Shown one piece after another: positions 11,383 to 52,804 of a stretch of 64,000 bases of DNA. The stretch's first letter is position 1; the number at the start of each line of letters is the position of its first letter. The position numbers and the translations under genes are program-made. The DNA is from an uncultured delta proteobacterium (GTDB taxonomy: Bacteria; Myxococcota_A; UBA9160; SMWR01): NCBI GenBank assembly GCA_963832165.1, contig CAWHTE010000001.1:96001-160000 (forward strand). The letters run 5' to 3'. Under the pieces are notes generated by a model. That model saw only the letters and a list, made by a program, of their open reading frames with translations, ran no database searches and was not told the DNA's origin.

Positions 11383-11423
11383 CCCGAAAGCAATGTAGGC
11401 GAGCGCTGGATCGGTTGCAGGGT

Positions 11424-11471
11424 GCAAGCGGCCGAAGGCCGCGCGCAGCGAGGCGAAGCCGAGCGAAGACC
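11424..11471 (+). repeat. Dispersed mini-hairpin repeat, copy A
   Basis: gcaagcggccgaaggccgcgcgcagcgaggcgaagccgagcgaagacc; its reverse complement matches the copies at 21155, 34997, 53786 and 54378. Confidence 0.75.
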
Positions 11472-11496
11472 AGAAGGCGTGCACTATGCTGCCGTC

Positions 11497-12753: not shown

Positions 12754-12760
12754 GCAAGCG

Positions 12761-14284: not shown

Positions 14285-14386
14285 CCGCGGGTTTCCCGCT
14301 ATTGCCGCAATGAGATACGCTGCGCCCCGGTCGGCGCGCCCGCGGCGCCGGAACCAACGAACGATCAACCCTGGGGGAGGGAAGAG

Positions 14387-14836: not shown

Positions 14837-14856
14837 GCTTCGGCGCCCCCCCGCCG

Positions 14857-16408: not shown

Positions 16409-16410
16409 GG

Positions 16411-16863: not shown

Positions 16864-16896
16864 TCCAGTAGCATCGGTTTTCCGACGGAGGTTTGG

Positions 16897-35023: not shown

Positions 35024-35384
35024 TCGGCCGACTCCGTCGGCCTCCTTGCTGGAGCAGCGCCTTCAGATCCGGCGGGATCTCCATGCGCTCGAAGAAGCCG
35101 ACGTTCGCGCCGCCCGTGTTGCCGCCGGGCGGAATGCCGAGCGCCGACCCGATCGCCGCGGCGGGCAGCCGCACGATCTGCCCCACGATCTCGCGCACGT
35201 CGCGGCGCAGCCAGCCGATGTGCAGCATCTCGACGTGCGTGCGCACGTGCGGCACGACGTACTGCTGACCCAGGATGTGCGCGCGCTCGAGGTGGCGGAA
35301 CGCGTCGTCGAGCGAGCCCGCGCGGCGCGCGGCTTCGGCCTCGCGCAGCTCGGACTCGAACGCCGAGCGCAGCTTCGGATTCAT
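35007..35384 (-). CDS. DUF3703-like protein
   Basis: HLERAHILGQ...H...H, EIVGQIVRL, GNTGGANV; ATGA overlap with the P450. Confidence 0.75.
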   Translation of the reverse strand: MNPKLRSAFESELREAEAARRAGSLDDAFRHLERAHILGQQYVVPHVRTHVEMLHIGWLRRDVREIVGQIVRLPAAAIGSALGIPPGGNTGGANVGFFERMEIPPDLKALLQQGGRRSRPTRSEA

Positions 35385-36628
35385 CGCGCCGAGGATAGTC
35401 GAACCCGCAGGTGATCGGGACCGCGGAAGGCGACGCCCCGGATGCACGGGGCCCGGAAGCGCGGATCGACATGGAGCTCGGCGAAGCGATCGAGCAGCGC
35501 GCCGATCGCGACGGTCGCTTCGAGGATCGCGAGGCGCGAGCCCGCGCAGTAGTGGCGGCCGAGCCCGAACGCGAGGTGCGCCTCGCCCTGCCGATCGACG
35601 TCGAAGCGGTCCGGGTCGGGGAAGCGGGTCTCGTCGCGATTCGCGGAGCCGATCCCGAGCACGAGGTCGCGGCCGCGCGCGATGCGCGTCCCCGCGATCT
35701 CGACGTCCTCCGTCGCCGTGCGCGAAAGGATCTGGATCGGCGACTCCCAGCGCAGCGTCTCCTCGAGCAGACGGCCGATCCGGCTGCGGTCCGCGCGCAC
35801 CGACGCGAAGAGCGCCGGGTCGCGCAGCATCGCGAAGAGCGCACTCCCGAGCAGGTGATAGGTCGTCTCGGCTCCCGCGAGCACGAGCAGGTAGAGAAAG
35901 CTGATCACCTCCTCGTCGGTCAGCGCACCTCCAAGGGCGGTGGCCGAGGCGAGCTCGCTGATCAGATCGTTGCCGGGCCGGGATCGCTTCTGGGAGACGA
36001 GCGGCGCGAGCGCGGCCGCCATGTTCTTCACCGCGGCGAAGCCGCGCCCGGGATCGGTCGCGACCATCGAGAGATCGGCCGACCAGCCGTGAAACGTCCT
36101 CACGTGCTCGGGCGCAAGACCGAGGATCTCCGTGAACACGCGCAGCGGATACACGTACGTGAACTCCGCCACGAGATCGGCGGCATCCCGCTGCTCGAAC
36201 GAGTCGATCACGGCCTCGGCGATCGACGCGACGATGCGCGGAAACTCACCCGCGAGCGAGCGCGGAGCGAGCGACGGCGTGATCAGGCTGCGGTGCTTCA
36301 AGTGCTCCCGGCCGTCCATTCCGATCAGCGTCCGCCCGATCACGATGCCGATGCCGCGGTCCGTGTTCGACCGGCTCGAGAAGCGCTCGTGGTCGCGCAG
36401 GACGGCGAGTACGTCGTCGTAGCGGGACACGAAGTACGAAGTCCCGGAGAGCAGCTCGACCACGGGCGCTTCGCGGCGCGCTCGGGCATAGAGCGGGTAG
36501 GGGTTCGCGATCGGCGCGGTCGGCCCGGCCAGGAACATGTCGGGGACCGTGAGCGGCAGGATCTCGTCGGTGGACCCGATCGTTTGCAGCGAACTGATAT
36601 CGACAGCGGCGGCGGCTACATCGTGCAT
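35381..36628 (-). CDS. Cytochrome P450
   Basis: AGAETT, EETLR, FGLGRHYCAG; start uncertain. Confidence 0.92.
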   Translation of the reverse strand: MHDVAAAAVDISSLQTIGSTDEILPLTVPDMFLAGPTAPIANPYPLYARARREAPVVELLSGTSYFVSRYDDVLAVLRDHERFSSRSNTDRGIGIVIGRTLIGMDGREHLKHRSLITPSLAPRSLAGEFPRIVASIAEAVIDSFEQRDAADLVAEFTYVYPLRVFTEILGLAPEHVRTFHGWSADLSMVATDPGRGFAAVKNMAAALAPLVSQKRSRPGNDLISELASATALGGALTDEEVISFLYLLVLAGAETTYHLLGSALFAMLRDPALFASVRADRSRIGRLLEETLRWESPIQILSRTATEDVEIAGTRIARGRDLVLGIGSANRDETRFPDPDRFDVDRQGEAHLAFGLGRHYCAGSRLAILEATVAIGALLDRFAELHVDPRFRAPCIRGVAFRGPDHLRVRLSSAR

Positions 36629-36743: not shown

Positions 36744-38483
36744 CTACGCGAGTCCGAGCTCCGCGAGCACGGCCATCTGCGCCAGGTCGCCGTCGATCAC
36801 GAGGCGCCGCGTGTTGAAGGCCTCCGCGCCCGAGAGATCTCCGTTCGCGATCTGCAGATAGCTCGCCGCATCGGCACGGATCGTCACCGTGGCATCGGCG
36901 CGCTCGGCGGGCGCGGTGTCGATCGTGAGCGCGCCGTCGCGCACCGCGAGGATCCACGTGCCGCCGTGCTCTCCCGTGAGCGCGTACTGCACCACGAGCT
37001 CGACGCCCGCGGCCTTCGCGGGATCGAAGCGGCTCGCCATCGCGGCGAACAGCTGCTCGACGGAGTCGACGCGGCGGGCCGCGAGCCGCGCGGCGCGCGC
37101 CCGCTCGCGCGCGAGCACGTCGGCTTCCATCGCCGCGATCGACTCGGCGAGGATCGCCGCGATCTGGTCCGCGCACGCGCGATCGATCGTGAGCGGAGGC
37201 GCGAGTCCCACCACCTCCGTCCCCATCGCGCGCACGTAGAGCCCGCGCTGCCAGGCTTCCGCTTCCACGCGTGCACAGGCCGAGTGCGGCTTCGAGAAGC
37301 CGCGCCGCGTCGCCTTGTCGGCGACGAGCTCGATGCCGATCATGAGCCCCACGCCGCGGATATCGCCCACGGAATCGAAGCCGCCGAGCATCTCGCGCAA
37401 GCGCTCGATCAGATAGGCGCCCACGTCGGCTGCGTTCTCGGCCAGGCGTTCGCGTTCGAGGATCTCGATGTTGGCGAGGGCCGCGGCGCAGCACGTGGGA
37501 TGGCCCATGTACGTGAAGCCGTGGCTGATCGGCATCTGGTTCGGCAGCTTCGCGCTGATCGTCTGGTAGATCTCCTCGGAGACCACCGACGCGCCGAGCG
37601 GCAGATAGCCGCTCGTGATCCCCTTCGCGAGCGTCACGACGTCGGGCCGCACGCGATAGCGCTCGAAGCCGAACATCGTTCCCGTGCGCCCGAAGCCCGT
37701 CACGACCTCGTCGAGGATCAACAGGATCCCGTGGCGGTCGCAGATCTCGCGGATGCGCTCGAAGTAGTCGTCGGGCGGGGGGATGATGCCGCCTGCGCCG
37801 TACACGGGCTCGGCGATGAACGCCGCGATCGTCTCGGCGCCGTCGCGCTCGATCAGGCGCTCGAGCTCGTCGGCGCACGCGAGCCGGCAGCTCGGATAGG
37901 TCTTGCCGAGCTCGCACTTGAAGCAGTAGGGTGCCGCGACGTGCGCGAAGCCGGGCGCCTCGGGTCCGAAGTTCCAGCGCAGCGGCATGATGCCCGTGGC
38001 GGTCATCGTCGCGATCGTGAGTCCGTGATAGGCATGGTGGCGAGCCACGATCGTCGTGCGCCGCTCCTCGCCGCGCAGCGCCCAGTAGAGGCGCACGAGC
38101 TTGATCGACGTCTCGTTGGCCTCCGACCCGCCCGACGAGAACATCACGTGCGAGAGGCCGTACTCGCGCGGGAACATCGAGCACAGCTTCTCGGCGAGCT
38201 CGATCGCGCGCGGGTGGGACTGGCCGTGGAAGGTCGTGAAGTACTCGAGCGTCTCCATCTGCTCGCGCACGGCCGCGATGATCTCGGGGCGCCCGTGCCC
38301 GACCGCCACGCACCAGAGCCCGGAGAACCCGTCGATCAGGCGGTGTCCGCGATCGTCGGTGATCCACCAGCCGTCGCCTTCGACGATCACGCGCGCGCCG
38401 TCGCTCTCCATCTCGCGTGGCGGCGTGAGCGGGTGGATCAGATGGGCGGCGTCGCGCTCGGCGAGCGGGGTCCGCCCGGGCAT
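36744..38483 (-). CDS. Class III aminotransferase with C-terminal SCP2 lipid-binding domain
   Basis: DGFSGLWC, GGSEANE, AFIAEP, DEVVTGFGRTG, LAKGITSGY; C-terminus FDPAKAAG...GGTW...ADATVT...DGD. Confidence 0.88.
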   Translation of the reverse strand: MPGRTPLAERDAAHLIHPLTPPREMESDGARVIVEGDGWWITDDRGHRLIDGFSGLWCVAVGHGRPEIIAAVREQMETLEYFTTFHGQSHPRAIELAEKLCSMFPREYGLSHVMFSSGGSEANETSIKLVRLYWALRGEERRTTIVARHHAYHGLTIATMTATGIMPLRWNFGPEAPGFAHVAAPYCFKCELGKTYPSCRLACADELERLIERDGAETIAAFIAEPVYGAGGIIPPPDDYFERIREICDRHGILLILDEVVTGFGRTGTMFGFERYRVRPDVVTLAKGITSGYLPLGASVVSEEIYQTISAKLPNQMPISHGFTYMGHPTCCAAALANIEILERERLAENAADVGAYLIERLREMLGGFDSVGDIRGVGLMIGIELVADKATRRGFSKPHSACARVEAEAWQRGLYVRAMGTEVVGLAPPLTIDRACADQIAAILAESIAAMEADVLARERARAARLAARRVDSVEQLFAAMASRFDPAKAAGVELVVQYALTGEHGGTWILAVRDGALTIDTAPAERADATVTIRADAASYLQIANGDLSGAEAFNTRRLVIDGDLAQMAVLAELGLA

Positions 38484-38486
38484 CGG

Positions 38487-39302
38487 CTAGCGCGCACCGC
38501 GCTTCGCGCGCGCGTCGATCGTGTTGCGCTTCACCGCGCGCCGCATGAACTCGGGTGCGACCGCCTGGATCACGTAGGCGGGCGAGATCCCGCCCGGGTA
38601 GGTGATCTCGTGCTTGCCCTTCGCAAGCGCATCCATCGTCGCGTCGACGAGCGCTTCCACCTCCACCATGCCGCGCTTCGCGGCCGGCGGCATGCGCGAC
38701 AGCGCCTCCTCGTCGAAGAACGGCGTGCGGATCACGCCCGGGCACACCGTGAGCACGTGCACGCCCGCGTCCTCGACCTCGAGCGAGAGCGAGGCGGCCA
38801 GTCCGACCATCGCGAACTTCGAGGCCGCGTAGGCCGACTCCTCGGGAGGTGCGATCTTGCCCGCGACCGACGCGACGAACACGAGCCAGCCGCGCCGCTG
38901 CTCCACCATCGCAGGCAAGAGCGCCTTCGTGAAGTAGAGCGTTCCGAAGTAGTTCACGCGCATCACGCGTTCCATGTCCTCGACCGACCACTCGAGGAAG
39001 GTGCGGTGATGTCCGTAGCCCGCATTGTTCACGAGCATGTCGATGCCGCCCCAGACCTCGCGCGCGCGCGCCGCCGTGGCCGCGACCTCCGCCGCGCTGG
39101 ACACGTCGCACGGCAGCACCACGGCCTCGCTTCCGCCGGAGCGGATCTCGGCCGCGAGCTTCTCGAGCTCCTCCGCGCGGCGCGCCACGAGCGCCACGCG
39201 CGCGCCCTCGCGCGCGAGCCGCAGCGCGAGCGTGCGGCCGATGCCGCTCGAGGCGCCCGTCACGAGCGCGCGCAGCCCCTGGTAGGAGCGCAGCCGCGTC
39301 AT
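38487..39302 (-). CDS. SDR oxidoreductase
   Basis: TGASSGIG, NNAG, YAASK. Confidence 0.9.
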   Translation of the reverse strand: MTRLRSYQGLRALVTGASSGIGRTLALRLAREGARVALVARRAEELEKLAAEIRSGGSEAVVLPCDVSSAAEVAATAARAREVWGGIDMLVNNAGYGHHRTFLEWSVEDMERVMRVNYFGTLYFTKALLPAMVEQRRGWLVFVASVAGKIAPPEESAYAASKFAMVGLAASLSLEVEDAGVHVLTVCPGVIRTPFFDEEALSRMPPAAKRGMVEVEALVDATMDALAKGKHEITYPGGISPAYVIQAVAPEFMRRAVKRNTIDARAKRGAR

Positions 39303-39940
39303 CGCGCGTTCTCGACGAGCGCGAGGATCACCGACTGCAGGTGCTGCTTGGTGCGCTCGCGGATGCGCGGGTCGGAGAGGTCCTTTCCGAACAGCTTCTT
39401 GTAGTGCGCAGTCGACAGGATGTGGTGGTGCAAGATTCCCTCCACGGTGATCAGCAGCAGGCCCAGATCGTGTTTGGGGGCGCCGAGCCTCTGGCCCGAG
39501 AGCGACTCGTCGATGAACTGCACCCAGCTCTGCTCCTTCAGCGAGACGCCCTTCGCGAGGCCTTCGCCGAGTGTTGCGCGTACCGAGAGCGCCACCCAGC
39601 CGCGCTTCTCGAGAAAGAAATCGAACAGCTCCTCGACGACCTTCTCGACCGTCGTCGCGAGATCGCCCTGGCCCGCGACCACCGCGCCGACGCGCTTGAG
39701 GATCTCGTCGTCCCAGCGCGAGAGCACCGCCTGGTACAGGCCCGGCTTCGAGCCGAAGTGGTGCTGGATCGTGAACGGGCGCACGCCGCATGCGCGCGAG
39801 AGCTCGCGCACCGACACGCCGCGGTAGCCGCGGTTCGCGAACAGGCGCTCGGCGCGGTCGAGGATCCGGGTGCGCGTGCGCTCGGCCTCCTCCTGCGAGC
39901 GCCGGCCGGCCGGGCGCGACTGGACTTTCTTATTGGCCAT
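39299..39940 (-). CDS. TetR family transcriptional regulator
   Basis: TRTRILDRAERLFANRGYRGVSVRELSRACGV...HHFGSK HTH. Confidence 0.9.
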   Translation of the reverse strand: MANKKVQSRPAGRRSQEEAERTRTRILDRAERLFANRGYRGVSVRELSRACGVRPFTIQHHFGSKPGLYQAVLSRWDDEILKRVGAVVAGQGDLATTVEKVVEELFDFFLEKRGWVALSVRATLGEGLAKGVSLKEQSWVQFIDESLSGQRLGAPKHDLGLLLITVEGILHHHILSTAHYKKLFGKDLSDPRIRERTKQHLQSVILALVENAR

Positions 39941-39982
39941 GTGTACAGTAAAACACCGCGCGCGCTCCGAGTCAACGCGCGC
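39941..39982. promoter_or_regulatory. Divergent promoter / candidate TetR operator region
   Basis: Imperfect palindrome gtgtacagtaaaacac abuts the tetR ATG; minus-strand TTGACT at 39970-39975; no RBS before tetR. Confidence 0.35.
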
Positions 39983-40023
39983 GTTCCCCGAAACCCCCCG
40001 GAATCCAGGCATCTGGAGGTCGC

Positions 40024-41271
40024 ATGCGCGCGCTCGTGATCGGCAGCGAGATGGCGCGGCTCATCGTCACCCGGTTGCTCGCCGCGCTCTCGCCGCGCGC
40101 GTTCGTGGGCCCGACCTCGACGCTGCGGCTGTGCGAAATCCCCGAGCCCACGCTGCCGGCACCCGATTGGGCGGTCGCGCGCACGCGCCTGTGCGGTCTG
40201 TGCGGCAGCGACTACAAGCAGGTGTTCATGAACGGGGCGTTCGACAGCCCGATGACCGCGATGATCTCGTGGCCGCAGGTGCTCGGGCACGAAGTGGTCG
40301 GCGTGATCGACGAGGTCGGACCCGCAGCGACGCGCCGCCGGATCGGCGAGCGCGTGGTGTTGAACCCGTGGCTGTCGTGCGAGACGCGCGGCCTGCCGCT
40401 GTGCGACTGGTGCGAGGAGGGCGACCTCGCGCAGTGCCTGAACTTCGCGCGCGGCAGCGCGGCACCCGGCATCCACACCGGCAACAGCTCGACCGCGACG
40501 GGCGGATTCGCGCAGCGCGTGCCCGCGCACGAATCGCAGTGGATCCCGATTCCCGACGAGATCAGCGACGACGCGGCCGTGCTCGCCGACCCGTTCTCGG
40601 TCTCGCTGCACGCGATCCTGCGCACGCCGCCGCCGCCGGGCGGCACCGCGCTCGTGTACGGTGCCGGCACGCTGGGTCTGTTCGCGATCGCGATCCTGCG
40701 CCTGCTCCACCCGCACGTACGCGTGCTCGCGGTGGCGCGCTTCGATCACCAGGCGCAGCTCGCGGAGAAGTTCGGTGCGGATCGCGTGTTTTCTTACCGG
40801 CCGGCGCTCGGGATCATCGAGGCCGTCGCGGAGGCGTGCGGCGCCGAGATCGCGCGCCCCTGGAGAGGGCTCCCGATGCTTCTCGGCGGTGCCGACGTGG
40901 TGTACGACACCGTGTCGTCGCCCGAGACTCTCGAGGTCGGACTCCGGATCGCGAACATCCGCGGGAGCATCGTGGCGCTCGGCGTCGAGCCGCCGCGCCG
41001 CTTCGAGTGGACGCCGCTCTACTTCAAGGAGATCTCGATCGTCGGATCGAACGGCTTCGGGATCGAGGAGTACGACGGGCGCCGGCAACACGCGATCGAG
41101 TGGTACTTCGAGTTCCTGCGCACGAAGCAGATCGATCTGACTCCGATCATCACGCACCGCTTCCCGCTCGCGGGCTACCGCGATGCCTTCATGACCTGTT
41201 ATTCGCAAGGCGACAACGGCGCCGTGAAGGTGCTGTTCGACCGCTTCACCGACGAGGAGACTTTGCGATGA
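40024..41271 (+). CDS. Zinc-dependent (polyol-type) dehydrogenase
   Basis: GLCGSD, LGHE, structural Cys cluster, GAGTLG, ITHRF; GGAGG RBS. Confidence 0.9.
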   Translation: MRALVIGSEMARLIVTRLLAALSPRAFVGPTSTLRLCEIPEPTLPAPDWAVARTRLCGLCGSDYKQVFMNGAFDSPMTAMISWPQVLGHEVVGVIDEVGPAATRRRIGERVVLNPWLSCETRGLPLCDWCEEGDLAQCLNFARGSAAPGIHTGNSSTATGGFAQRVPAHESQWIPIPDEISDDAAVLADPFSVSLHAILRTPPPPGGTALVYGAGTLGLFAIAILRLLHPHVRVLAVARFDHQAQLAEKFGADRVFSYRPALGIIEAVAEACGAEIARPWRGLPMLLGGADVVYDTVSSPETLEVGLRIANIRGSIVALGVEPPRRFEWTPLYFKEISIVGSNGFGIEEYDGRRQHAIEWYFEFLRTKQIDLTPIITHRFPLAGYRDAFMTCYSQGDNGAVKVLFDRFTDEETLR

Positions 41272-44200
41272 GCCGCGTGCTCTTGGGAATCGATCTCGGA
41301 GGCGGCAGCGTCCACTGCACGCTGCTGGACGCCGACACGGGCGCGCGCTTCGAGGCCGCGCTCGCGATCACGAGCCAGTCGGCGGAAGGCACGAGCGGCC
41401 TCGGCTACGAGATCGCCACCGATGAGCTCTGGGCGCGCGTGGGCGAGACCACGCGCGCGGTGCTCGCTTGCGCGGGCGCCACGGGCGATGCCGTCGCGGG
41501 CGTGTCGGTGACAGCGATGCGCTTCACGTCGGTGGTGCTCGACGCGGCCGGCGAGGTGCTGTTCGCGGTGCCCAACCGCGATGCGCGCTCGGTCGGCGAG
41601 AGCATGCGGATCGCGGCCGAGCGCGGCCAGGCGGTGCTCGCGACCAGCGGCATGTGGCCGCTGCCGATCCACGCTGCGCCGCGCCTGTCGTGGCTGCGCA
41701 GCGCGCGGCCTGACGTGTTCGGGCGCGCGGTTACGCTGCTCTCGCTCTCGGACTGGCTGAACTTCCGGCTCTGCGGACGGCGGATCACCGACGAGACACA
41801 GGCGGGCTGCACGGGCCTGTTCGATCTGCGCAAACGCGAGTGGAACGCGGAGCTGATCGACGCGTTCGGGCTGCCGCGCGCGATCTTCCCCGAGGTGCGA
41901 CCGTCGGGCGAGCGGATCGGCGAGCTCGACGCGCGCGCCGCGCGCGAGCTCGGGCTCGCACCCGGCACGCCCGTGGCGCTCGGCGGCGGCGACACGCGCT
42001 GCGGACTGCTCGGCGCGGGCGCGATCGCCGACGGCGACGTGGGCCTGATTGCGGGAACCACCGCTCCGCTCGAGCTCGTGACCGACGAGCCCGTGATCGA
42101 CGGCGAGGGACGGCTGCGCAGCGGGCTTCACGCGGTGCCGGGGCGTTATGTGCTCGAGGCGAACGTGGGACCGGTCGGCGAGGGCCTGGCCTGGCTCGCG
42201 CGCCTGCTCCACCCGGACGACGCGCGGCCCGACGACCGCTTTGCGGCCGAGGCTTCGACCGCGGCGATCGGCTCGGCCGCGATGCTCGCGAACGTGGGCG
42301 CACTCGTGGCGAACGATCGCCAGCCCGCTTTCCCCGTCGGCATGTACTCGCTCTCCCACATGACGGGCACGCAGGGGCGCAGTGCGCGCGCGAGCCTCGC
42401 GCGCTCCGCGCTCGAGGGAGTGGCGTGTGCGGTGCGCGCGAACCTCGAGCAGCTCACGCGCGTCACGGGGCGCGATCTGCGCCGCATTCATCTCGCGGGC
42501 GGGCTCTCGCGCAGCGCGCTGTTCGCGCGGATCCTCGCGGGCATCACGCGCGCCGAGGTGGTGCGCGCGGCGGCGCCCGAGGCGACCGGCCTCGGCGCTG
42601 CGCTGTGCGCGGGCATCGGCGCGGGCGTGTTCGCGGACGCGCTCGACGCGGTGAGCCACGGCGTGCGCGCAGCGGAGACCTCCGCGCCGCAGGCGGCCGA
42701 GGCCGACGCGTACGAGCGGCTCTACGAGAGCTGGAGCGAGCTGCGCGACGCGGCCGAGCAGACCACGGCGCCGATCGCGATGCGCCACACGGTTCCGGCC
42801 GCGCTCGCCGCCTCGCAGCGCAACGGGCGGCGCGCCAAGGCCGCGCATCGGCCCAAGGCGCTCGTCACCGCGGCGTTCGACGACGCGTCGATCGAGCGGC
42901 TGCGCGGCTTCGCCGACGTCGAATACGCGAGCTTCCGCGACCGCATGCAGCTGCTCACGGGCGCGAGCCTGGTCTCGGCGCTCGCCGACTGCGACGTGCT
43001 GGTCACCGAGGTCGACGTCGTCGACGCGAAGGCGCTCGAAAAGCTTCCGAACCTGCGCGTGGTGGCGGCCTGCCGCGGCGACGCCGTGAACGTGGACGTG
43101 GCCGCGTGCAGCGCGTTCGGGATCCCGGTGCTGTTCGCGCCGGGCCGCAACGCCGACGCGGTGGCCGACCTCACCGTCGCGTTCCTGCTCAACCTCGCGC
43201 GGCGGCTGCCCGCGGCCACGAAGTTCCTCGCCGACCCGGCGGTGACGGCCGGCAATCTCGCGGCGATGGGCAAGGCGTTCCGGGGCCTGCAGGGCTACGA
43301 GCTCTGGTCGAAGACGGTGGGTCTGGTCGGACTCGGCGCGGTCGGGCGCGGCGTGGCGCGCCGGCTCTCGGGCTTCGGCGTGCGCCTGCTGGTCGCCGAT
43401 CCGTACGTCTCCGCGGAGGAGGCCGCGCTCGCGGGCGCCGAGAAGGTCGAGCAGGGCGAGCTCCTGCGCACGAGCGACTTCGTGAGCCTGCACGCGGCCG
43501 TCACCGACGCGACGCGCGGGCTGCTCGGCCCCGCGCAGTTCGCCGCGATGAAGCCCGGCGCGTATCTGATCAACACCGCACGCGCGGCGCTGGTCGACGA
43601 GGCCGCGCTGCTCGCGGCGCTCGACAGCGGGCACCTCGCGGGCGCTGCGCTCGACACGTTCGCGGTCGAGCCGCCCGGCGCCGATCACCCGCTCGTGCGC
43701 CACGGCAGCGTGATCCACACGCCGCACATCGGCGGCAACACGAACGAGGTCGCTGCGCACCAGGGCCGGAGTATCTCCGATGCGCTCGAGCAGCTCGTGC
43801 GCGGTGAGGCGCCGCGCTGTCTGCTCAATCCCGAGGCGCTCGCGGGCTTCAGCTGGACGGGTTCGCGCCGCGTGCCGACGGCCGACGAGCTCACCGCGCT
43901 CGCCAATCGCGCGGGCCCGGCCGTCACCGACCTGCAGCGCGACGCGCAGGCCGAGGCCCAGGAGGAGAAGCTCGAGCCGAGCGCCGCGCCCGCGGAGACG
44001 GTCGCGGCGATGAAGCGGATCCTCGAGACGTTCACGGCCGCGATGGCGCAGGACGAGCGCGTGCACGCGTTCAGCGCCGACAAGGACGTCGCGCTCTACT
44101 TCGTGCTGCCCGACATCGGCCTCGACCTCCACATCGCGCTGCGCGAGGGACGGGTCTCGGGCGGGCTCGGCAAGCCCGAGGGTGGCTCCGTGGTCCAGCT

Positions 44201-45083
44201 GCGCATGCGCGCGGCGATCCTGGACGGGATGTTCACGGGCAAGGTGAACGCGATGGAAGCCGCGATGCAGGGCGAGGTCGCGTTCACGGGCGACGCCGGC
44301 AAGGCGATGGCGATCCAGCAGCTCCAGGGCGACATGCGGCGGCTCTACAGCGCCGCGCGCGAAGAGGTGGGCGATCCGGGCGACCTCGCCGCGATTCCGC
44401 AGCCGGGCGCGGCGCCGGGCGCCGCCGCTGCGGCGAAGCCCGTCGGCTCCGACGACGTCCGCGTCGAGATCGTCTCGATCACCCAGGAGCTCTACGAGAA
44501 CCAGGTGATCACCGCGACGGGCGGCAACGTGTGCGCGCGGATCCCGGGCAAGCCGGACGAGGTCTGGATCACGCCGAGCCAGCTGTTCAAGGGCGATCTG
44601 CGGCCCGAGGTACTCGTGCGGATCGACCTCGATGGCAAGTCGCTCGACGAGGGCTCGCGCTCGGCGTCGTCCGAGTGGAGCATGCACACGCAGATCCTCA
44701 AGAAGAAGCCCGAGGCGAAGGCCGTGATCCACGCCCACGCGCCGTTCGCGACCACGCTCGCGAACACGGGGCTGCCGTTCCTGCCGATCAGCACCGAGGC
44801 CGCCTTCTTCGGCGACATCCCGCGCGTGCCGTTCATCATGCCCGGCACCGACGCGCTCGCGGAGGCGGTCTCCGAAGCGATGAAGGACAGCTGGGCCGTG
44901 TTCATGGTGAACCACGGGCTGGTCGTGTGCGGGCGCAGCCTGCGCCGCGCGGCCGACATGGTGGAGATCGTCGAGCGCTCGGCACAGCTGATCCTGGGCT
45001 GCTATGCGGTGGGCAAGGAGCCGCCGGTGCTGCCCGAGAAGACGGTCGCGATGCTGCGCAAGATGGGCGATCTGGTCGCGTAG
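41268..45083 (+). CDS. Four-domain fusion: FGGY carbohydrate kinase + D-2-hydroxyacid dehydrogenase + SCP2 + class II aldolase (1271 aa)
   Basis: GIDLGGGS, GGGD, AGTT, EATGLGAA; GLGAVG, INTAR, TPHIGG; FTGKVNAMEAAMQGEVAFTGD; GGNV, SSE, HAH, NHG; one uninterrupted frame with ATGA overlap upstream. Confidence 0.88.
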   Translation: MSRVLLGIDLGGGSVHCTLLDADTGARFEAALAITSQSAEGTSGLGYEIATDELWARVGETTRAVLACAGATGDAVAGVSVTAMRFTSVVLDAAGEVLFAVPNRDARSVGESMRIAAERGQAVLATSGMWPLPIHAAPRLSWLRSARPDVFGRAVTLLSLSDWLNFRLCGRRITDETQAGCTGLFDLRKREWNAELIDAFGLPRAIFPEVRPSGERIGELDARAARELGLAPGTPVALGGGDTRCGLLGAGAIADGDVGLIAGTTAPLELVTDEPVIDGEGRLRSGLHAVPGRYVLEANVGPVGEGLAWLARLLHPDDARPDDRFAAEASTAAIGSAAMLANVGALVANDRQPAFPVGMYSLSHMTGTQGRSARASLARSALEGVACAVRANLEQLTRVTGRDLRRIHLAGGLSRSALFARILAGITRAEVVRAAAPEATGLGAALCAGIGAGVFADALDAVSHGVRAAETSAPQAAEADAYERLYESWSELRDAAEQTTAPIAMRHTVPAALAASQRNGRRAKAAHRPKALVTAAFDDASIERLRGFADVEYASFRDRMQLLTGASLVSALADCDVLVTEVDVVDAKALEKLPNLRVVAACRGDAVNVDVAACSAFGIPVLFAPGRNADAVADLTVAFLLNLARRLPAATKFLADPAVTAGNLAAMGKAFRGLQGYELWSKTVGLVGLGAVGRGVARRLSGFGVRLLVADPYVSAEEAALAGAEKVEQGELLRTSDFVSLHAAVTDATRGLLGPAQFAAMKPGAYLINTARAALVDEAALLAALDSGHLAGAALDTFAVEPPGADHPLVRHGSVIHTPHIGGNTNEVAAHQGRSISDALEQLVRGEAPRCLLNPEALAGFSWTGSRRVPTADELTALANRAGPAVTDLQRDAQAEAQEEKLEPSAAPAETVAAMKRILETFTAAMAQDERVHAFSADKDVALYFVLPDIGLDLHIALREGRVSGGLGKPEGGSVVQLRMRAAILDGMFTGKVNAMEAAMQGEVAFTGDAGKAMAIQQLQGDMRRLYSAAREEVGDPGDLAAIPQPGAAPGAAAAAKPVGSDDVRVEIVSITQELYENQVITATGGNVCARIPGKPDEVWITPSQLFKGDLRPEVLVRIDLDGKSLDEGSRSASSEWSMHTQILKKKPEAKAVIHAHAPFATTLANTGLPFLPISTEAAFFGDIPRVPFIMPGTDALAEAVSEAMKDSWAVFMVNHGLVVCGRSLRRAADMVEIVERSAQLILGCYAVGKEPPVLPEKTVAMLRKMGDLVA

Positions 45084-45084
45084 T

Positions 45085-45705
45085 CTACGCCGAGTCGACT
45101 CTCGCCCGGAGCGCCGTCCGTTCCGCCGCGGTGACCACGCGCGGCGCGCACACCAGCGCGCCGGTCGCGTCGAAGAACGGCCCGCGGCGGTGATCGCCGC
45201 GCAGCCGCGCGGCGAGAGCGATCCAGAAGAGCCGGAGGATCACCGACGCAGGAAAGCGGTCGTGCGCATCCAGCTGCTCGCGATGCTTCGCGAAGCGGGC
45301 GTGACCGCGGGTGCGGATCGGTCCGAGCACCTGCTCGCGCGCGCTCTCGGGCGCATCGATGCAGCTGTGGATCAGGCCCACGAACGGCACCTGCCGCGAG
45401 GCGAGCGTATTGCCGATCGGGGTGCGGCAGCACGCCGCGTACCAGCGCACGAGGCCGCCGGGTGCGAGGCGCATGCAGGCCAGGCGATCGGCGCCCGCGC
45501 TGATCTCGAGATGGGCGGGAGACATCTGGAAGATCTCGGTGCCGCCGTGTTCGTCGAGCGTCTCCTTCGCGGCGTCGAGGAAGTGCGCGAACGCCTGGCA
45601 GTCGTCGCAGTAGCAGTAGACGCGGTTCCCGAGCTCGCCCGAGACGCCGCGCGCGCTCCCGCGCAGCGCTCCGCAGCTGCATCGGATCGGGAGATCGGCG
45701 GGCAT
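45085..45705 (-). CDS. DUF6151 / GFA-like zinc-binding protein
   Basis: CSCG, CYCDDCQ, RWYAACCRTPIGN. Confidence 0.75.
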   Translation of the reverse strand: MPADLPIRCSCGALRGSARGVSGELGNRVYCYCDDCQAFAHFLDAAKETLDEHGGTEIFQMSPAHLEISAGADRLACMRLAPGGLVRWYAACCRTPIGNTLASRQVPFVGLIHSCIDAPESAREQVLGPIRTRGHARFAKHREQLDAHDRFPASVILRLFWIALAARLRGDHRRGPFFDATGALVCAPRVVTAAERTALRARVDSA

Positions 45706-45723: not shown

Positions 45724-46956
45724 CTAGCGCGCCGGCGCGAGCTCCCAGCGCAGGGGCACGCGCTTGATGCCGCCCACGAACGACGACCGCACGCGGTCGA
45801 CCGGCCCCGCGAGCTCGGCGCGCACGAGTCGCGTGCGCAGCTCCTCGAACACGGCGCGGATCTCGAGCCGCGCGAGATGGGCACCCAGGCACACGTGCTC
45901 GCCGCGCCCGAAGCCGACATGGTCGTTGGGCTGGCGGTCGATCCGGAACACGTCGCCGTCGGGGAAGATCTGCTCGTCGCGGTTCGCCGACGGGTAGAAC
46001 AGGCACAGCGACTGTCCGGCGCGGATCGCCTGGCCGCGCAGCGAGAAATCCTCGGTCGCGGTGCGGCAGAACTGGATCACAGGCGTCGTCCAGCGCACGA
46101 TCTCCTCGATCGCGGGTGTCACGAGCGCCTCGTTCTCCTGGAGCCGCTTCCACTCGCCCGGATTCTCGAGGAACGCGAGCATGCCACCCGTCATCGCGTT
46201 GCGCGTCGTCTCGTTGCCGGCCACCACGAGCAGGAAGAGGTAGGACAGCAGCTCGACGGGGGGCAGCGCGCGCCCGTCCACAGAGGCGTTGGCCACCTCG
46301 CTCACGATGTCGTCGTTCGGCTGGCTCCGCCGGCGCTCGGCGAGCTCGTGGAAGTAGGCGAACACCTCGTGGCGCGCGCCGTCGATCGTCTTCTGCGCGT
46401 CGCCATCGCGCTGAAACTCCGGGTCTTCGGGCGCGATGACCTCGTTGGTCCAGCGGAACAAGAGCGGCCAGTCCTCGTCGGGCAGGCCCAGCATCAGCGC
46501 GATCACCGCGATCGTGATCGGCGCGGACACGTCCTTCACGAAGTCGATCTGCTCGCGCTGCGCAGCGGCGTCGAGCACGTCGCGCGTGATCCGGCGCACC
46601 TTCGACTCCCAGCCCTGCGCCGCGCGCGGCGTGAAGCGCTTGCTCGCGACCTGGCGGTACTTCGCGTGGTCGGGCGGGTCCATGTTGAGCAGATGGCGCG
46701 TCTCGCCCTCGGGCGGCGGCGGGACCTTGTTGTCGAACACCGCGAGGCGCGGCGCATTCTGGAGCGTCTTGGGGTGCTTGCCCAGCCAGACGACATCGGC
46801 GTGCTTGGTGACGACCCAGAACGGATCGAAGTTCGGCCGCTCGTACCACAACACCGGCGCGTGCTGGCGCAGGTATGCCCACTCGCGATGCGGATAGCCG
46901 TGCTGCTCGTAGTGCTCGGGGTTCATCACGTCGATCGTCGCGAGATCGAAGCTCAT
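45724..46956 (-). CDS. Cytochrome P450 (CYP125/124/142-like)
   Basis: FWVVTKHAD, MDPPDH, AGNETTRN, EEIVRW, FGRGEHVCLG. Confidence 0.9.
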   Translation of the reverse strand: MSFDLATIDVMNPEHYEQHGYPHREWAYLRQHAPVLWYERPNFDPFWVVTKHADVVWLGKHPKTLQNAPRLAVFDNKVPPPPEGETRHLLNMDPPDHAKYRQVASKRFTPRAAQGWESKVRRITRDVLDAAAQREQIDFVKDVSAPITIAVIALMLGLPDEDWPLLFRWTNEVIAPEDPEFQRDGDAQKTIDGARHEVFAYFHELAERRRSQPNDDIVSEVANASVDGRALPPVELLSYLFLLVVAGNETTRNAMTGGMLAFLENPGEWKRLQENEALVTPAIEEIVRWTTPVIQFCRTATEDFSLRGQAIRAGQSLCLFYPSANRDEQIFPDGDVFRIDRQPNDHVGFGRGEHVCLGAHLARLEIRAVFEELRTRLVRAELAGPVDRVRSSFVGGIKRVPLRWELAPAR

Positions 46957-48276: not shown

Positions 48277-49602
48277 CTACGACTTTTCATCATCCTCGTT
48301 CACGGCGCCCGCGCCCAGGTAGACGTCGAGACCCGTGATCGAAGCGTTGCGGTAGGTGCGCGCCATCGCGGCTTCACAGTTCGATTGGCCGCGCCAGAAC
48401 GGGAAGCCGCCGAGCCGCGCCACGATCGCGCCGGGCTTGCGCGGGATGCGCACCTCGATCGCCTCGTCGCGGCTGCGCACGGCGCCGCCCCAGAACACCT
48501 CGGGATCCTCCGGGAGCGGCTCGTCGGGAATCACGCGCTCGGGCGGCGGCTCGATCACGGCGATGTTCGGCGCCACGAACGGCTCGCCCTCGTCCCCTTC
48601 GAGCAGCTCGCCGTCGGCTCCGTACGTGGGCTCGGAAGACGATGGCGGCATCGGCGCCCGCGGGATCGCCGCGGGTCCGAGCGCCGCGAGCAGCTCGCTG
48701 CGCTCCATGCCGCGAAGCTGGAAGATCAGGAACGGATCGCGGTCGAACTCCTCGCCGAGCAGGTAGTAGACGGCCGCCACGTGCTTGCATGGGTTCGCGT
48801 TGTCGGGGCACGAGCACGCGGCCTTGAGATCGCCGCTCGCGTTGGGGAAGAGCGACAGGCGCTGCTCTTCGAACACGCTCTCGATGCTTTCGGGGATGGT
48901 CCCCATGCCGAGTTCGACGGCGATGTCGGGGCGCTGCGCGAGCGCGCGCGTGAGCTTCTTCCAATCGGTGCTCGACAGCATCGAGAAGTGCATGCGCACG
49001 AGATACGGTGCGTCGCGCGAGCCCTGAACGTGCGCGGTGACGAAGCCCTTGCCGATCTCGATGTCGACGATGTGGCCCTGGCGCGCGTAGTTGCGGCCGC
49101 GTCCGAGCCGACGCCCGACCGCGAACCGCTCGAGCACTTCCACCCAGCGCCGCGCCCACCAGTTCTCACCGGTGCGCCCGCGCCGCGGGCGTCCGCGTTG
49201 ATTGTTGTTGCGCTGCGGTCGCCCTTGTCCGCGCCCGCGCCGGTTCCGGCCGCCGCTCTTGCCGCGCTGCTGGCCCTGCCAGCCGCCGCCGCCATTCCCG
49301 CCGCGCTGCGCACCATCGCCGTCGTCGCCGTCGTCGTGGAACACCTCGAGGTCGCGGAACAGCTCGGGCGGCCTCGCCGCGACGTCTGCGCCGCTCGCGC
49401 CCTCCACGCCCGGCGCGGCCGTCGGCGCGGCGTTCCAGGATCCGTTTCCGCCCGCGCCGCCGTTCTGCGCGTTCGGATCGACCGGGCCGCTCGGACCGCC
49501 GGGACCGCGCCCGCCGCGCCGGCGCCGCGGCCGTCGCCGCCGGCGGCGGGGTTCTCCGCCGCCTCCGCCGACTTGTCCGCCGCCCGGGCCTTCTTCGCTC
49601 AT
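48277..49602 (-). CDS. SWIM zinc-finger protein with long Gly/Arg-rich N-terminal extension
   Basis: WWARRW, RLGRGRNYARQG, VQGS, CSCPD...PCKH, DPFLIFQLRG. Confidence 0.88.
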   Translation of the reverse strand: MSEEGPGGGQVGGGGGEPRRRRRRPRRRRGGRGPGGPSGPVDPNAQNGGAGGNGSWNAAPTAAPGVEGASGADVAARPPELFRDLEVFHDDGDDGDGAQRGGNGGGGWQGQQRGKSGGRNRRGRGQGRPQRNNNQRGRPRRGRTGENWWARRWVEVLERFAVGRRLGRGRNYARQGHIVDIEIGKGFVTAHVQGSRDAPYLVRMHFSMLSSTDWKKLTRALAQRPDIAVELGMGTIPESIESVFEEQRLSLFPNASGDLKAACSCPDNANPCKHVAAVYYLLGEEFDRDPFLIFQLRGMERSELLAALGPAAIPRAPMPPSSSEPTYGADGELLEGDEGEPFVAPNIAVIEPPPERVIPDEPLPEDPEVFWGGAVRSRDEAIEVRIPRKPGAIVARLGGFPFWRGQSNCEAAMARTYRNASITGLDVYLGAGAVNEDDEKS

Positions 49603-49604
49603 CG

Positions 49605-52600
49605 CTAGTCCCGCACCGCGTCCTTGCGCAGCGAGAACACCTCGTGCAGCTCCGCGTTGGAGAGCTCGGTGATCCACTGCTCGCCGGTGCCCACGATGTC
49701 CTCGGCGATCGATCTGCTTGCGCTCGATCATCTCGTCGATGCGCTCTTCGAGCGTTCCGACGCACACGAACTTGTGTACCTGCACGTTGCGCGTCTGGCC
49801 GATGCGGAACGCGCGGTCGGTGGCCTGGTTCTCGACGGCGGGGTTCCACCAGCGATCGAAGTGGAACACGTGGTTGGCGCCGGTCAGGTTGAGACCGAGG
49901 CCGCCCGCCTTGAGCGAGAGCACGAACACGGGCGGCGCATCCGAGCCGCCGGCCTGGAAGCGCTCGACCATCTGATCGCGTCGCTTCTTGGGCGTGCCGC
50001 CGTGCAGGAAGTACACCTCGCGACCGAGCTCGTCCTGCAGATGCTCCTGGAGCAGCTTGCCCATCTCGGCGAACTGCGTGAACACGAGCGTGCGATCGCC
50101 CGCGAGCGTGACCTCCTCGAGCATCTCGGAGAGGCGCGTGAGCTTGCCCGATCGCTTGGGCAGCTCGGAGCCGTCGCCGAGGAAGTGCGCCGGGTGGTTG
50201 CACACCTGCTTGAGCTTCACGAGCGTCGCGAGGATCACGCCGCGCCGCTCGATGCCCTCGGCGTCCTCGAGCTTGCGCTCCGCCTCCTTCACGACCTGCT
50301 CGTAGAGCGTGCCCTGCTCGCCCGTGAGCGTGCAGAACACCTTCATCTCGAGCTTGTCGGGCAGGTCGGAGATGATCGCGCGGTCGGTCTTCAGGCGGCG
50401 CATGATGAACGGCTTGGTGATGTGCGCGAGCTTCTCGACCGCGTCGGGATCGCGGTGGGCCTGGATCGGCACCAGGAAGTCGCGGCGGAACTGCTCCTGG
50501 CTGCCGAGGAAGTCGGGGTTCAGGAAGTCCATGATCGACCACAGGTCGCCCACGTGGTTCTCGACCGGCGTGCCCGTGAGCGCCGCGCGGTAGTCGGCCA
50601 TCACGGCGCGCACTGCCATCGACTGCTTCGTGTCCGGGTTCTTGATGTTCTGCGCCTCGTCGAGGATCACGCCCGCCCAGCGCATCGAGCGCAGGTCTTC
50701 GAGATCGCGCTGGACGAGCGCATAGCTCGTGAGCACGAGCGCGTGGTCCTGCGCATCGGAGACGAATTCGTAGCCCTTCTTCCGCTGCGGGCCGTGGTGG
50801 ATCATCGTGCGCAGGTCCGGCGTGAAGCGCGCGGCCTCGCGCTCCCAGTTCGCGAGCACCGAGGTGGGGCACACGAGCAGCACGGGGCGGTCCTCGCCGT
50901 TGTTCCGCTCGCGCTCGATCAGCGCGAGCGTCTGGATCGTCTTGCCGAGACCCATGTCGTCGGCGAGACAGGCGCCGAGCTCCCAGCGGCGCAGGAACTC
51001 GAGCCAGGCGAAGCCCTTCTCCTGATAGGGCCGCAGCGCGCCGATGAAACCGGGCGGTGTCGCGAGCGGCTCGATCGCGTTCTTGTCCGAGAGCCGCTCG
51101 AGCAGCGCGCCGAGCCAGCCCGTGGCCCGCACGCCCTCGAAGTGGATGCCCGCCGACGAGTCGGCGGCGCCGAGCGCCATGCGCACGATCTCGCGCGCGG
51201 TCACCTCGCCGCCGCGGCGGTTCTTGTAGAACTCGAGCGCTGCGTGGATCTCCTCGACGCTCGTCTGCACCCAGTGGCCGCGCACGCGCTGGAGCGGCTC
51301 CTTGAGGCGCGCGAGGTCCTCGAGGTCGCGGCCCGAGAGCGGGTTGCCCGCGAGACACACCTCCCAGTCGAACGCGACCGTTTCGTCGAGACGCGGCTCG
51401 TAGTCGAGCTCGGTCTGCTCGGGCGTGCGTACGCGCGCGCGCACCGAGAGCCGATGGCGCGTGCTGCCGCCGGTCCACCACTCGGGCAGGATCGTGCCGA
51501 AGCCCGCCTGCTCGAGCGCGGGCGCGGTCTGGGTCAGGAACTCGTGCGCGCCGCGCGCGTCGAGCGAATAACCCGACGGTTTGCGCGAGCGCAGGCTCAT
51601 CTCGATCTTCGGGCACACCCCGGCCGCCTGCGCGAGCGAGAGCAGGAGCGTCTGGTGCACGTCGCTGCCGGAGCGCTGCAGCGCGGCCGCCTTCCGGCCG
51701 CGCAGGATCCACGCGTCGGCGGTCGGCACGAGCAGCGACGGGTCGTCGGTGCCCTGGAGCAGGTAGCGCACGTACCAGCGGCGCTGACCCGGGCCGCATC
51801 GCCTCGCGCGTGCGCGCCTTGTTGTTGCGCTTGCCGTACGGTCGCTTGCCCCGCTGCGGCTCCTCGCGCGGCGGTGCGGGCTCCTCGAGCCGGAAGCAGA
51901 GCCGGAACGGCGCGCCGATCGTGACGTCGAGCGGCTTGCGCCACTCGCGGATCTGCTCGCTTGAGGTCTTCGAGCTCGGTGTCCTTGCCGCGCAGCACGG
52001 GCTGCTCGGCGCAGAGCGCCGCGAGCCAGCGGTCGTGCACCGTGGCGTCGGGCGCGTCCTCGCCCGCGAACAGGCTCGCGGAGACCGAGACGATGCCGTC
52101 TTCGGCCTCGGGCTCGCGGTGCGTGCGAACGATGTGGTCGACGAGCTGATCCACGAAGCGCTGCACGACCTTGACGCCGGGCCGTCTGCGGCGCGGCGGC
52201 GCCGTTCGTCACGAGCGCGCGCGCGGCTGCGGGCATCGCGCTCGCGAGGTCGTCGAGATAGCGCAGGTCGTCGGTGATCCAGACCGGCTTCCAGCACGCG
52301 AGCGAGCTTGCCTTCGGCGTCGACCTCGGTACCGGGCAGATAGCGCTGGCGCGCCACGAGCGACCCGGCGAGCCGCACCGCGCGGATCCAGAACCGCAGG
52401 TCGGGCCCGCCCACCACGCCGTGGAGCATCCCCCCGCGCTGCCCGTAGCCCGAGAGCAGATCGAGCGCCTCCGCGGTGGTGAGCGAGATGCCCTCCACGC
52501 GCCAGGGCGCGGCCGCGATCGGGTCGGTGGAGTCGGGCGCCTCGCCGATCAGCGCGCTCGAGGGCAGCGGGTGATCGCCGCGCGTGGGCAGCCAGGCCGT

Positions 52601-52804
52601 GGCCTCGGTCTTGCGGCGCGCAGTGGGCCGGAACGCGATCGGCAGATCGCGCGCGGCGCGCGTGACGGCCTCGGCCCCGGCGTCGTAGGGGTAGGGCGCC
52701 GGGCGCTCGCCGCGGCGGCCCTTGCTCGATGCGGCGCCCTCGGCCGGCGACTCTCCCCAGAGGAAGAGCGCGTCGTCTAGGAGCGCGCCGTGCAGGATGA
52801 TCAT
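49605..52804 (-). CDS. SNF2-family helicase/ATPase; several frameshifts
   Basis: LRPYQ, LADDMGLGKT, DEAQ, LTGTPVEN, GLNLTGAN, QATDRAFRIGQ; frame breaks near 52290-52170, 51960, 51785 and 49713; corrected C-terminus ends LRKDAVRD with TAG at 49605. Confidence 0.88.

Follow-up and report, generated by a model that had tools for sequence, protein, structure and literature searches.

The 64,000-nucleotide stretch analyzed here (hereafter the window), from an uncultured delta proteobacterium (contig CAWHTE010000001.1 of assembly GCA_963832165.1), encodes on its plus strand, at positions 41268–45083, a 1271-residue protein in which an FGGY kinase, a D-2-hydroxyacid-dehydrogenase-like domain, an SCP2 domain and a class II aldolase are fused in that order. 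This fusion is the conserved unit of the locus and belongs to a family that is widespread in several phyla. As judged from its sequence, the four-part enzyme probably takes a sugar-like tail off a bulky lipid, hopanoids being the likeliest lipids. On balance, we favor the reading that it would serve as a catabolic unit for a lipid ending in a 1,2,3,4-tetrol, most likely bacteriohopanetetrol (BHT). Genes, domains, residues and neighborhoods were observed, and from these we infer all of the reactions and the substrate.

Pfam searches placed the FGGY_N and FGGY_C parts of the kinase at residues 5–451 (41280–42620), the NAD-dependent 2-hydroxyacid-dehydrogenase fold (2-Hacid_dh) at residues 536–850 (42849–43847), the SCP2 match at residues 945–1019 (domain at 43983–44387; E = 1.9e-7) and the FucA/DrdA-type aldolase (Aldolase_II) at residues 1067–1242 (44445–45080), all on the plus strand. 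Among 8000 scored candidates, 741 matched the fusion at E ≤ 1e-20. Of the 120 matches listed, 119 exceed 1200 residues and 112 carry a precomputed SCP2 match, and the SCP2 region was aligned in all full-length homologues (118/118). Among the carriers that have names are Halieaceae, Myxococcota, Binatia, Anaerolineae, Thermoleophilia and a small number of mycobacteria (6 of 201 genomes), and the cultured marine Halioglobus japonicus also encodes the fusion. Within the order of the window's organism, 61 genomes were compared: 21 contain a full-length match, and 37 a full, partial or kinase::dehydrogenase-only match (designated below as module-bearing). A longer form of 1453 residues with a doubled SCP2 domain, preceded by a sugar-binding regulator, is found in locus L063 (9986–14344), and further forms of 1430–1476 residues are among the matches listed.

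The residues expected for catalysis are invariant in an alignment of the full-length copies (119/119 in each case): D9, R85 and D242 of the kinase; R772/E801/H820, D711, R557, R603 and the NAD motif of the dehydrogenase; and E1136, H1155, H1157, H1216, N1087, S1134 and S1135 of the aldolase. Because of this invariance, all three catalytic domains are predicted to be active. None of them reaches the cut-off of any named family. The dehydrogenase scored 213.6 bits with the PGDH model (cut-off 454), and its T580-E581 and C602-R603-G604 stand where PHGDH has R-S and A-G-T, with the R/E/H triad kept. The invariant substrate-loop residue R603, which replaces a PHGDH glycine, would suit a phosphate ester. 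This domain is among the best conserved of the family, with a mean identity of 67% compared to 47% for the kinase, and a hunt for its shorter relatives turned up contig fragments for the most part, with no characterized enzyme among them. Two aromatic residues of DrdA and FucA, which we take to line the aldehyde pocket, align with Thr/Ser and Pro in the aldolase domain, a change that may be common in the family. When aligned to 6btd and FucA, the aldolase domain shows the three metal-binding histidines, the catalytic glutamate and the phosphate pocket. Its best match in the PDB is 6btd (E = 5e-26), a code that occurs once in the accessible text of the DrdA paper (PMC6079011).

The window contains a second SCP2 fusion, an omega-type class III aminotransferase of 579 residues (36744–38483, minus strand; Aminotran_3, E = 4e-103) with SCP2 at residues 486–574 (approximately 36762–37028, minus strand; E = 9e-12). 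Both SCP2 assignments, on which the original prediction was built, are real: the Pfam scores are 31.8 bits for the four-domain fusion and 45.7 bits for the aminotransferase, above the cut-off of 21.3. The weaker call, that of the four-domain fusion, holds in profile and structure searches. Specifically, a profile search of the PDB gave seven matches at E ≤ 0.01, all of them SCP2 proteins or alkyl sulfatases, and the same two groups account for all 30 listed Foldseek matches at E ≤ 0.001 (30/30). Alkyl sulfatases have an SCP2-like C-terminal domain. The AlphaFold model used for this search was built from 68 sequences and has a predicted local distance difference test (pLDDT) score of 92; model and search cover the SCP2 domain of the four-domain fusion only. 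A single-sequence model of SCP2 plus aldolase gave a pLDDT of 36.9. In the family of the aminotransferase fusion, 117 of the 120 listed homologues have a Pfam SCP2 match. In seven split operons from Anaerolineae (L099–L102, L143, L148 and L149), SCP2 is kept as a separate gene of 129–153 residues beside those of the dehydrogenase, kinase and aldolase (40–49 bits; confirmed by Pfam in three). Since it stays as a gene of its own in these operons, SCP2 appears to belong to the pathway.

Extended hopanoids arise when a 5′-deoxyadenosyl radical adds to diploptene, and the resulting ribosylhopane is converted to aminotriol by HpnO or to BHT (PMC12583986; here and below, papers are cited for the portions of their text that were accessible). 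Because the tail derives from 5′-deoxyadenosyl addition, BHT can be regarded as 5-hopanyl-5-deoxy-D-ribitol. In the route we propose, SCP2 would hold the hopane, the kinase would phosphorylate C35 and the dehydrogenase would oxidize C34 (C2 of the polyol 1-phosphate), in either order. Both steps together would yield a 5-substituted ribulose 1-phosphate. Compounds of this class are what DrdA acts on: from 5-deoxyribulose 1-phosphate (with an inferred 3R,4R configuration), a small counterpart of the substrate proposed here, it forms dihydroxyacetone phosphate (DHAP) and acetaldehyde (PMC6079011). The Zn/Mn aldolase would split the C33–C32 bond to give DHAP and a C32 aldehyde (hopanal), which an aldehyde oxidoreductase or dehydrogenase could convert to bishomohopanoic acid. 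By structural reasoning, the side chain of this acid, –CH(CH3)CH2CH2COOH, would equal the C5 chain of bile acids. For CasG, which activates the C5 chains of bile acids, chain length counts for more in substrate choice than the ring system does (PMC8399759), and a CasG-like ligase with steroid-type β-oxidation enzymes might shorten the chain to the predicted products acetyl-coenzyme A (CoA), propionyl-CoA and a ring ketone. An optional upstream cassette of amidase, aminotransferase and reductase would lead from N-acyl-aminotriol via aminotriol and the C35 aldehyde to BHT. The omega-transaminase::SCP2 of the window, acting with a Zn dehydrogenase or a short-chain dehydrogenase/reductase (SDR), would represent a non-orthologous version of this cassette. 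BHT has been called ubiquitous (PMC8600536). In one carbonate study, the chief hopanoic acid was the C32 compound, with a share of 35–100% (PMC11884234).

The genes around the module in other genomes support this reading. Neighborhoods were compared in 56 loci from the genome collection and in 116 loci in all, the larger set including near-identical metagenome contigs and fragments. An aldehyde:ferredoxin oxidoreductase gene is present in 9 of the 116 loci and also in L143, and an aldehyde dehydrogenase gene in L096 and, weakly, in L034. The recurrence of such genes beside the module makes the product look like an aldehyde. Together with the invariant residues, it supports the kinase–redox–aldolase route to DHAP and an aldehyde, as the original prediction had envisaged from domain logic. 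The commonest neighbor, flanking 24 of the 56 loci, is a ligase whose best model is the steroid-24-oyl-CoA synthetase CasG (NF052580; 625.7 and 653.7 bits), the next family scoring approximately 357 bits. Alongside it are genes for a KshA-like Rieske protein, a P450, a ChsH2-type OB-fold protein, a thiolase-like protein and paired acyl-CoA dehydrogenases. As this ligase and the steroid-type β-oxidation genes adjoin the module, the acid product looks steroid-like. In the window's own genome, orthologue-level matches of these neighbors lie elsewhere, outside the locus, with one CasG-like orthologue among 36 ligase matches.

A link to hopanoids comes from six loci of Anaerolineae and Thermoleophilia, in which an HpnO-like aminotransferase, an M28 amidase and HpnA are encoded beside the module (L050, L068, L092, L095 and L127, i.e., 5 of 116, plus L143). 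The metagenome scan, which returned mostly near-identical Chloroflexota loci, contributed one extra locus with this cassette. In L143, the genes for a GntR regulator, SCP2, dehydrogenase, kinase, aldolase, oxidoreductase, aminotransferase, M28 and HpnA form a single run. The aminotransferases of L050 and L068 are 52% and 51% identical, over their full lengths, to the product of a Streptomyces gene that follows dxs in an shc–hpnH cluster; NCBIfam gave no HpnO model, and the name HpnO for the Streptomyces gene rests on its position and on PMC9228677. The top three of five matches of the HpnO-like aminotransferase in a plasmid collection are from Streptomyces, and the two that were checked sit in shc clusters. 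HpnA of L050 and L068 scored 430.7 and 425.5 bits with TIGR03466 (cut-off 367.65), a model that is defined by association. In one sample of 251 genomes from the class to which the cassette-bearing genome G061 belongs, 23 have the module, 8 an HpnO-like gene and 6 both, compared with 0.7 expected, in a set of related genomes that do not count as independent. Four cassette-bearing genomes, all incomplete (G061, G063, G238 and G261), were searched, and neither hopene cyclase nor HpnH was detected; because of this, use of the cassette looks catabolic. The suggestion that a hopanoid is the best candidate substrate thus gains support from the split-operon SCP2 genes, the aldehyde oxidoreductases, the cassette and the CasG-like ligase, all of them in other genomes. 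A role of the module as a biosynthetic partner of hopene cyclase was considered and rejected, the cyclase being present in 10 of 37 module-bearing genomes and in 9 of 24 other relatives.

The remaining genes at the window's locus are less conserved in their linkage. The original prediction described a pathway of five genes: those of a TetR-family regulator, an SDR, the aminotransferase::SCP2, a Zn-dependent dehydrogenase and the four-domain fusion. All five are present as described, and a search of other genomes for the same architectures and neighborhoods showed that both SCP2 fusions belong to protein families but that the gene linkage is not conserved. Among the 56 loci, the aminotransferase::SCP2 adjoins the fusion in only one, and a conserved five-gene pathway no longer stands; the layout is local. 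This conclusion is in agreement with the numbers for the SDR and the Zn dehydrogenase (4 of 56 loci each, the SDR being fused to an M28 amidase in two), with the full-length presence of the aminotransferase::SCP2 in 2 of the 61 same-order genomes, and with its absence, together with that of the downstream P450, from the same-genus locus L014. In genome G581, which has no match to the module, the aminotransferase::SCP2 sits with an SDR and an aldehyde dehydrogenase. The analogy drawn between the window's aminotransferase and HpnO also fails, because the gene product is an omega-transaminase with 28% identity to the Streptomyces hpn-cluster enzyme and has no kinship to it beyond the class III fold, so that the likeness is not one of orthology. 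The Zn dehydrogenase has orthologues (E < 1e-180) in 20 of the 37 module-bearing genomes and in 4 of the 24 remaining relatives. L068 encodes a fusion of HpnA with a Zn dehydrogenase (49% identity to that of the window), and in L019, L020 and L071 there is linkage between M28 genes and window-type SDR and Zn dehydrogenase genes. These fusions and linkages tie the window's accessory genes to the M28/HpnA cassette. Of the proposed lipid with an amino-polyol head, the lipid polyol is supported by other genomes, and the amino step looks accessory to a core that would handle a neutral tetrol. In L073 (5070–8917) and L074 (2088–5894), hydantoinase/oxoprolinase A and B genes lie beside orthologues of the window's Zn dehydrogenase and beside thiolase-like and OB-fold genes.

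Several observations weigh against the assignment to hopanoids or to a lipid. The CasG-like ligase scores below the NF052580 cut-off of 750 bits, and its occurrences beside the module come mostly from two lineages, Halieaceae and Myxococcota. The cassettes of the six loci are 67–89% identical and fall on two branches; since this is one closely related cassette on two branches, the six loci represent approximately two events. HpnA above its cut-off was found in 19 of the 251 genomes, 7 with the module and 12 without it. An HpnO-like gene is present in 16 of the 61 relatives, 9 with a hopene cyclase and 7 with none detected, and the HpnO-like aminotransferase scores 428 bits, under the cut-off, with the PigE model. 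Because HpnA also occurs without the module, and the HpnO-like gene also occurs without a detected cyclase and scores on PigE, the HpnA and HpnO labels do not prove a hopanoid substrate. The rare linkages of the aminotransferase::SCP2, SDR and Zn dehydrogenase described above count on the same side. Furthermore, SCP2-less relatives occur, from which it follows that chemistry of this kind is possible in the absence of a lipid carrier. Kinase::dehydrogenase lacking SCP2 is encoded at 13 loci of the same dehydrogenase clade; in all five genomes of this type that were tested (5/5), the only aldolases found were distant (28–38% identity), and nothing matched the SCP2 part. A close aldolase lies beside an SCP2-less kinase::dehydrogenase in L087, and an SCP2-less operon (L098) lies inside the split-operon group. 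An SCP2-less trio of aldolase, dehydrogenase and kinase is common in mycobacteria and falls outside the SCP2-bearing group in our tree, a quick version in which many forks are open. Approximately 80 of 201 genomes of the mycobacterial genus have a 45%-identical dehydrogenase.

Other features of these relatives were also recorded. The kinase::dehydrogenase proteins of approximately 890 residues without SCP2 and aldolase include stable forms in Actinomycetota (L107–L110 and L151–L154), with two copies in genome G658. Trio loci are L105 (6764–9801), L106 (7623–9184) and L155 (6947–10103); in mycobacteria they lie beside methyltransferase genes and secY-adk-map. In one mycobacterium, an ERG2/sigma-1-like gene (sterol isomerase fold) directly precedes the fusion, and other mycobacterial fusions are followed by a wax-ester synthase gene and an aldehyde dehydrogenase-like gene (loci L104, 7074–7778, and L103, 12488–13195). 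In the family of the window's organism (L084, L085 and L087–L090), a gene near the module is presumably pyruvate-kinase-like, going by the start of its sequence; its position may reflect synteny or a link to DHAP use.

Among other substrates, the best placed is a sphingoid base. In such a route, the M28 enzyme would de-acylate (phyto)ceramide, and phytosphingosine would lose its amino group at C2, receive a phosphate at C1 and be split into DHAP and pentadecanal. The recurrence of amidase and aminotransferase genes near the module is in line with this idea, as are the omega-type aminotransferase of the window with its own SCP2 domain and the ability of SCP2 to bind acyl chains; phytosphingosine, having the D-ribo configuration, fits stereochemically as well as BHT, a further point that tells against singling out the latter. 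After transamination at C2, however, the fused dehydrogenase would be superfluous, yet it is better conserved than the kinase (67% vs 47% mean identity). It is mainly because the tetrol needs this dehydrogenase, and a transaminated 2-amino sphingoid does not, that we rank BHT above phytosphingosine. In addition, the aminotransferase is missing from most loci, the linked aminotransferases match the hpn-cluster gene, and the commonest ligase is CasG-like instead of a generic fatty-acid ligase. We therefore regard sphingoid catabolism as unlikely. Slightly less likely again is a small soluble polyol or 5-substituted ribitol, such as a by-product of S-adenosylmethionine (SAM), with SCP2 as an accessory or membrane-docking domain and the lipid genes as a reflection of lipid-rich genomes. 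The 13 kinase::dehydrogenase-only loci of the same clade, the mycobacterial trios beside methyltransferase genes, the sugar-binding regulator ahead of the L063 fusion and the action of the closest named relatives, LsrK and DrdA, on small SAM-derived sugars would all suit such a substrate. They have to be set against an SCP2 domain that no full-length homologue lacks (118/118), that L063 has twice and that seven split operons retain as a gene by itself, against a specific set of neighbors (of 36 ligase matches in the window's genome, one is a CasG-like orthologue), and against neighbor clusters with no recurrent sugar transporter.

The same chemistry might also act on another polycyclic or long-chain polyol, e.g., a polyhydroxylated steroid side chain, a bile alcohol or another triterpenoid, to give an aldehyde of the steroid-24-al type. 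The CasG-like ligase, KshA-like Rieske protein, P450 and Ltp2/ChsH2-type neighbors are hallmarks of steroid catabolism and point in this direction. Sterol side chains are, however, branched at C25 and lack the unbranched terminal tetrol that release of DHAP needs, and the HpnO-like/HpnA cassette would be left unexplained; this option appears a little more improbable than the soluble polyol. Very improbable, in our view, is a breakdown of ether lipids, in which an alkylglycerol would be phosphorylated and oxidized to alkyl-DHAP, and the aldolase fold would eliminate a fatty alcohol and methylglyoxal. A glyoxalase-fold gene in 16 of the 116 loci, and a kinase and dehydrogenase that suit a glycerol backbone, speak for it, but methylmalonyl-CoA epimerase has the glyoxalase fold too, the aldolase retains every residue of the FucA/DrdA set and scores lower with MtnB (86 bits) than with FucA-type models (111 bits), and the amino and HpnA genes would find no explanation. 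Three further candidates were rejected. Ribonylhopane (the 35-acid) would, by reasoning, leave no primary alcohol for the kinase, and the ribityl chain of riboflavin would, likewise by reasoning, require the opposite aldol stereochemistry and give no use to a CoA ligase. The tetronate route of OtnK and OtnC acts on a sugar acid with a free terminal alcohol (PMC12994016); the OtnC model scored 98.4 bits (cut-off 250), and the gene context is unlike.

At the locus itself, two operons diverge across a gap of 83 nucleotides (39941–40023). The leftward operon consists of the TetR-family gene (39299–39940; 213 residues; TetR_N, E = 4e-14), the SDR gene (38487–39302; 271 residues; adh_short, E = 3e-58) and the aminotransferase::SCP2 gene, all on the minus strand. 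The original prediction had placed a TetR gap between the two gene groups: the TetR gene is real, but it is the first gene of the leftward operon and not a gap. The rightward operon begins with the Zn-dependent polyol-dehydrogenase-like gene (40024–41271, plus strand; 415 residues), whose product is a candidate aldehyde reductase or alcohol dehydrogenase, and continues with the fusion gene. As had been described, start and stop codons overlap or nearly adjoin: TetR/SDR and Zn dehydrogenase/fusion overlap by 4 nucleotides, the latter pair being translationally coupled, and 3 nucleotides separate the SDR from the aminotransferase. Third-position GC is 0.92–0.94 in all five genes. TetR copies with 84–87% identity occupy the same position in the same-genus loci L013 and L014, in which the block 39941–39975 is also kept; its minus strand reads TTGAC..TTTACT just before the TetR start. 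This pattern suggests a −35/−10 pair ending at the TetR start codon, with a TetR transcript that is possibly leaderless. A repeat search of the gap gave nothing beyond short GC-rich matches. The cluster is flanked by a DUF6151 gene and two P450 genes (35381–36628, 45085–45705 and 45724–46956). The P450 at 35381–36628 (minus strand; Pfam) lies downstream of the aminotransferase, and its membership of the cluster is uncertain; both P450s are found at the same positions in L013.

Elsewhere in the window's genome, a squalene-hopene cyclase gene in two overlapping pieces (294102–295936 of contig C4) is followed by hpnG-like and hpnH genes; because hopene cyclase and HpnH are encoded, this organism may also make hopanoids. 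The split may be a sequencing artefact, since several other genes of the assembly look frameshifted. Away from the cyclase cluster, a single run (913985–917261 of contig C11) encodes a ferritin-like protein, an HpnO-like aminotransferase (51% identical to the Streptomyces hpn-cluster protein) and an HpnA-like epimerase; the same aminotransferase and epimerase pair occurs in L167. In the window, positions 7070–17658 encode a predicted acyl carrier protein, ligase, halogenase-like oxidoreductase, ammonia lyase, thioesterase and methyltransferase, named from the starts of their sequences alone, and possibly form a small biosynthetic cluster. SWIM zinc-finger and SNF2-type helicase genes lie at 48277–52804, the helicase frame being apparently split over two reading frames.

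Literature searches, which cover thinly the subscription journals where much hopanoid geochemistry appears, gave no account of the fusion protein or of enzymatic cleavage of the hopanoid side chain. Among the papers listed for SCP2 with FGGY and aldolase, none mentions FGGY, and no such route was evident from the titles and opening abstracts of papers on sphingoid catabolism. C35 polyol tails are shortened in sediments, and side-chain cleavage is regarded as the source of extended sedimentary hopanoids (PMC8600536). Tentatively, and with a confidence slightly short of calling it probable, we propose that the module would carry out the first enzymatic breakdown of bacteriohopanepolyols, in aerobes and anaerobes. 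Cleavage of BHT to DHAP and C32 hopanal would explain the dominance of C32 hopanoic acid in young sediments, and bile-acid-type β-oxidation would then lead to trisnorhopan-21-one. As a corollary, HpnA, which is paired with an HpnO-like gene in the catabolic operons, would be the missing reductase from ribosylhopane to BHT, a step that the accessible text of PMC12583986 lists without an enzyme. As molecular fossils, hopanoids rank among the most used. If correct, the proposal would supply a marker gene with which the turnover of hopanoids could be followed in soils, oceans and anoxic sediments, and would bear on the reading of C32 products in the rock record. The single polypeptide of the cultured H. 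japonicus makes the question directly testable. The results would also correct the automatic label of autoinducer-2 (AI-2) kinase on many homologues and, even with another lipid as the substrate, would describe a lipid-adapted DHAP shunt that is absent from the literature searched.

The label of AI-2 kinase stems from a likeness to LsrK, which, of the named proteins, matches the kinase domain best (5ya0, E = 9e-51). The score with the LsrK model is 235.7 bits (cut-off 528), and no lsr transporter, LsrF or LsrG gene was found among the recurrent neighbors; AI-2 processing was rejected on these grounds. The mycobacterial trio near secY, which we take to be of the fucA-serA2-xylB type, has the same three catalytic folds with an approximately 45%-identical dehydrogenase, but is encoded by separate genes without SCP2; no literature was found that names two of its three locus tags. 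The fucose and rhamnose routes (FucK–FucA and RhaB–RhaD) also combine an FGGY kinase and a class II aldolase to give DHAP and an aldehyde, which a further enzyme then handles. In contrast, the fusion loci lack an isomerase and a transporter and have the additional dehydrogenase and SCP2 domains, and the fusion scored 127.9 bits with FucK (cut-off 470.9) and 88.6 and 110.9 bits with FucA models (cut-offs 400.25 and 264). The disposal of 5-deoxyribose by DrdK–DrdI–DrdA likewise uses a class II aldolase on a 1-phospho-5-deoxy-ribulose to give DHAP and an aldehyde (PMC6079011). Here, an FGGY kinase and a NAD dehydrogenase replace the methylthioribose kinase and the isomerase, the enzymes form one chain with SCP2, and the proposed substrate would bear a C30 lipid at C5; the MtnA-type isomerase that marks the DHAP shunt is absent among the window's genes and the recurrent neighbors. 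The recurrent neighbors most closely resemble the catabolism of the bile-acid C5 side chain by CasG, paired acyl-CoA dehydrogenases, Shy/Sal and ChsH2/Ltp2, a route for which the accessible texts give no polyol-clipping step, and the predicted C32 acid would have the same side chain (PMC8399759, PMC12329534). Close relatives of the hopanoid tailoring genes HpnO and HpnA (PMC12583986) adjoin the module at six loci from other phyla, where the cassette genes occur without a detected hopene cyclase, implying use in the reverse direction. Taken together, the comparisons indicate that the fusion works like the fucose route and like the 5-deoxyribose shunt and is a member of neither, nor of the Lsr or tetronate systems.

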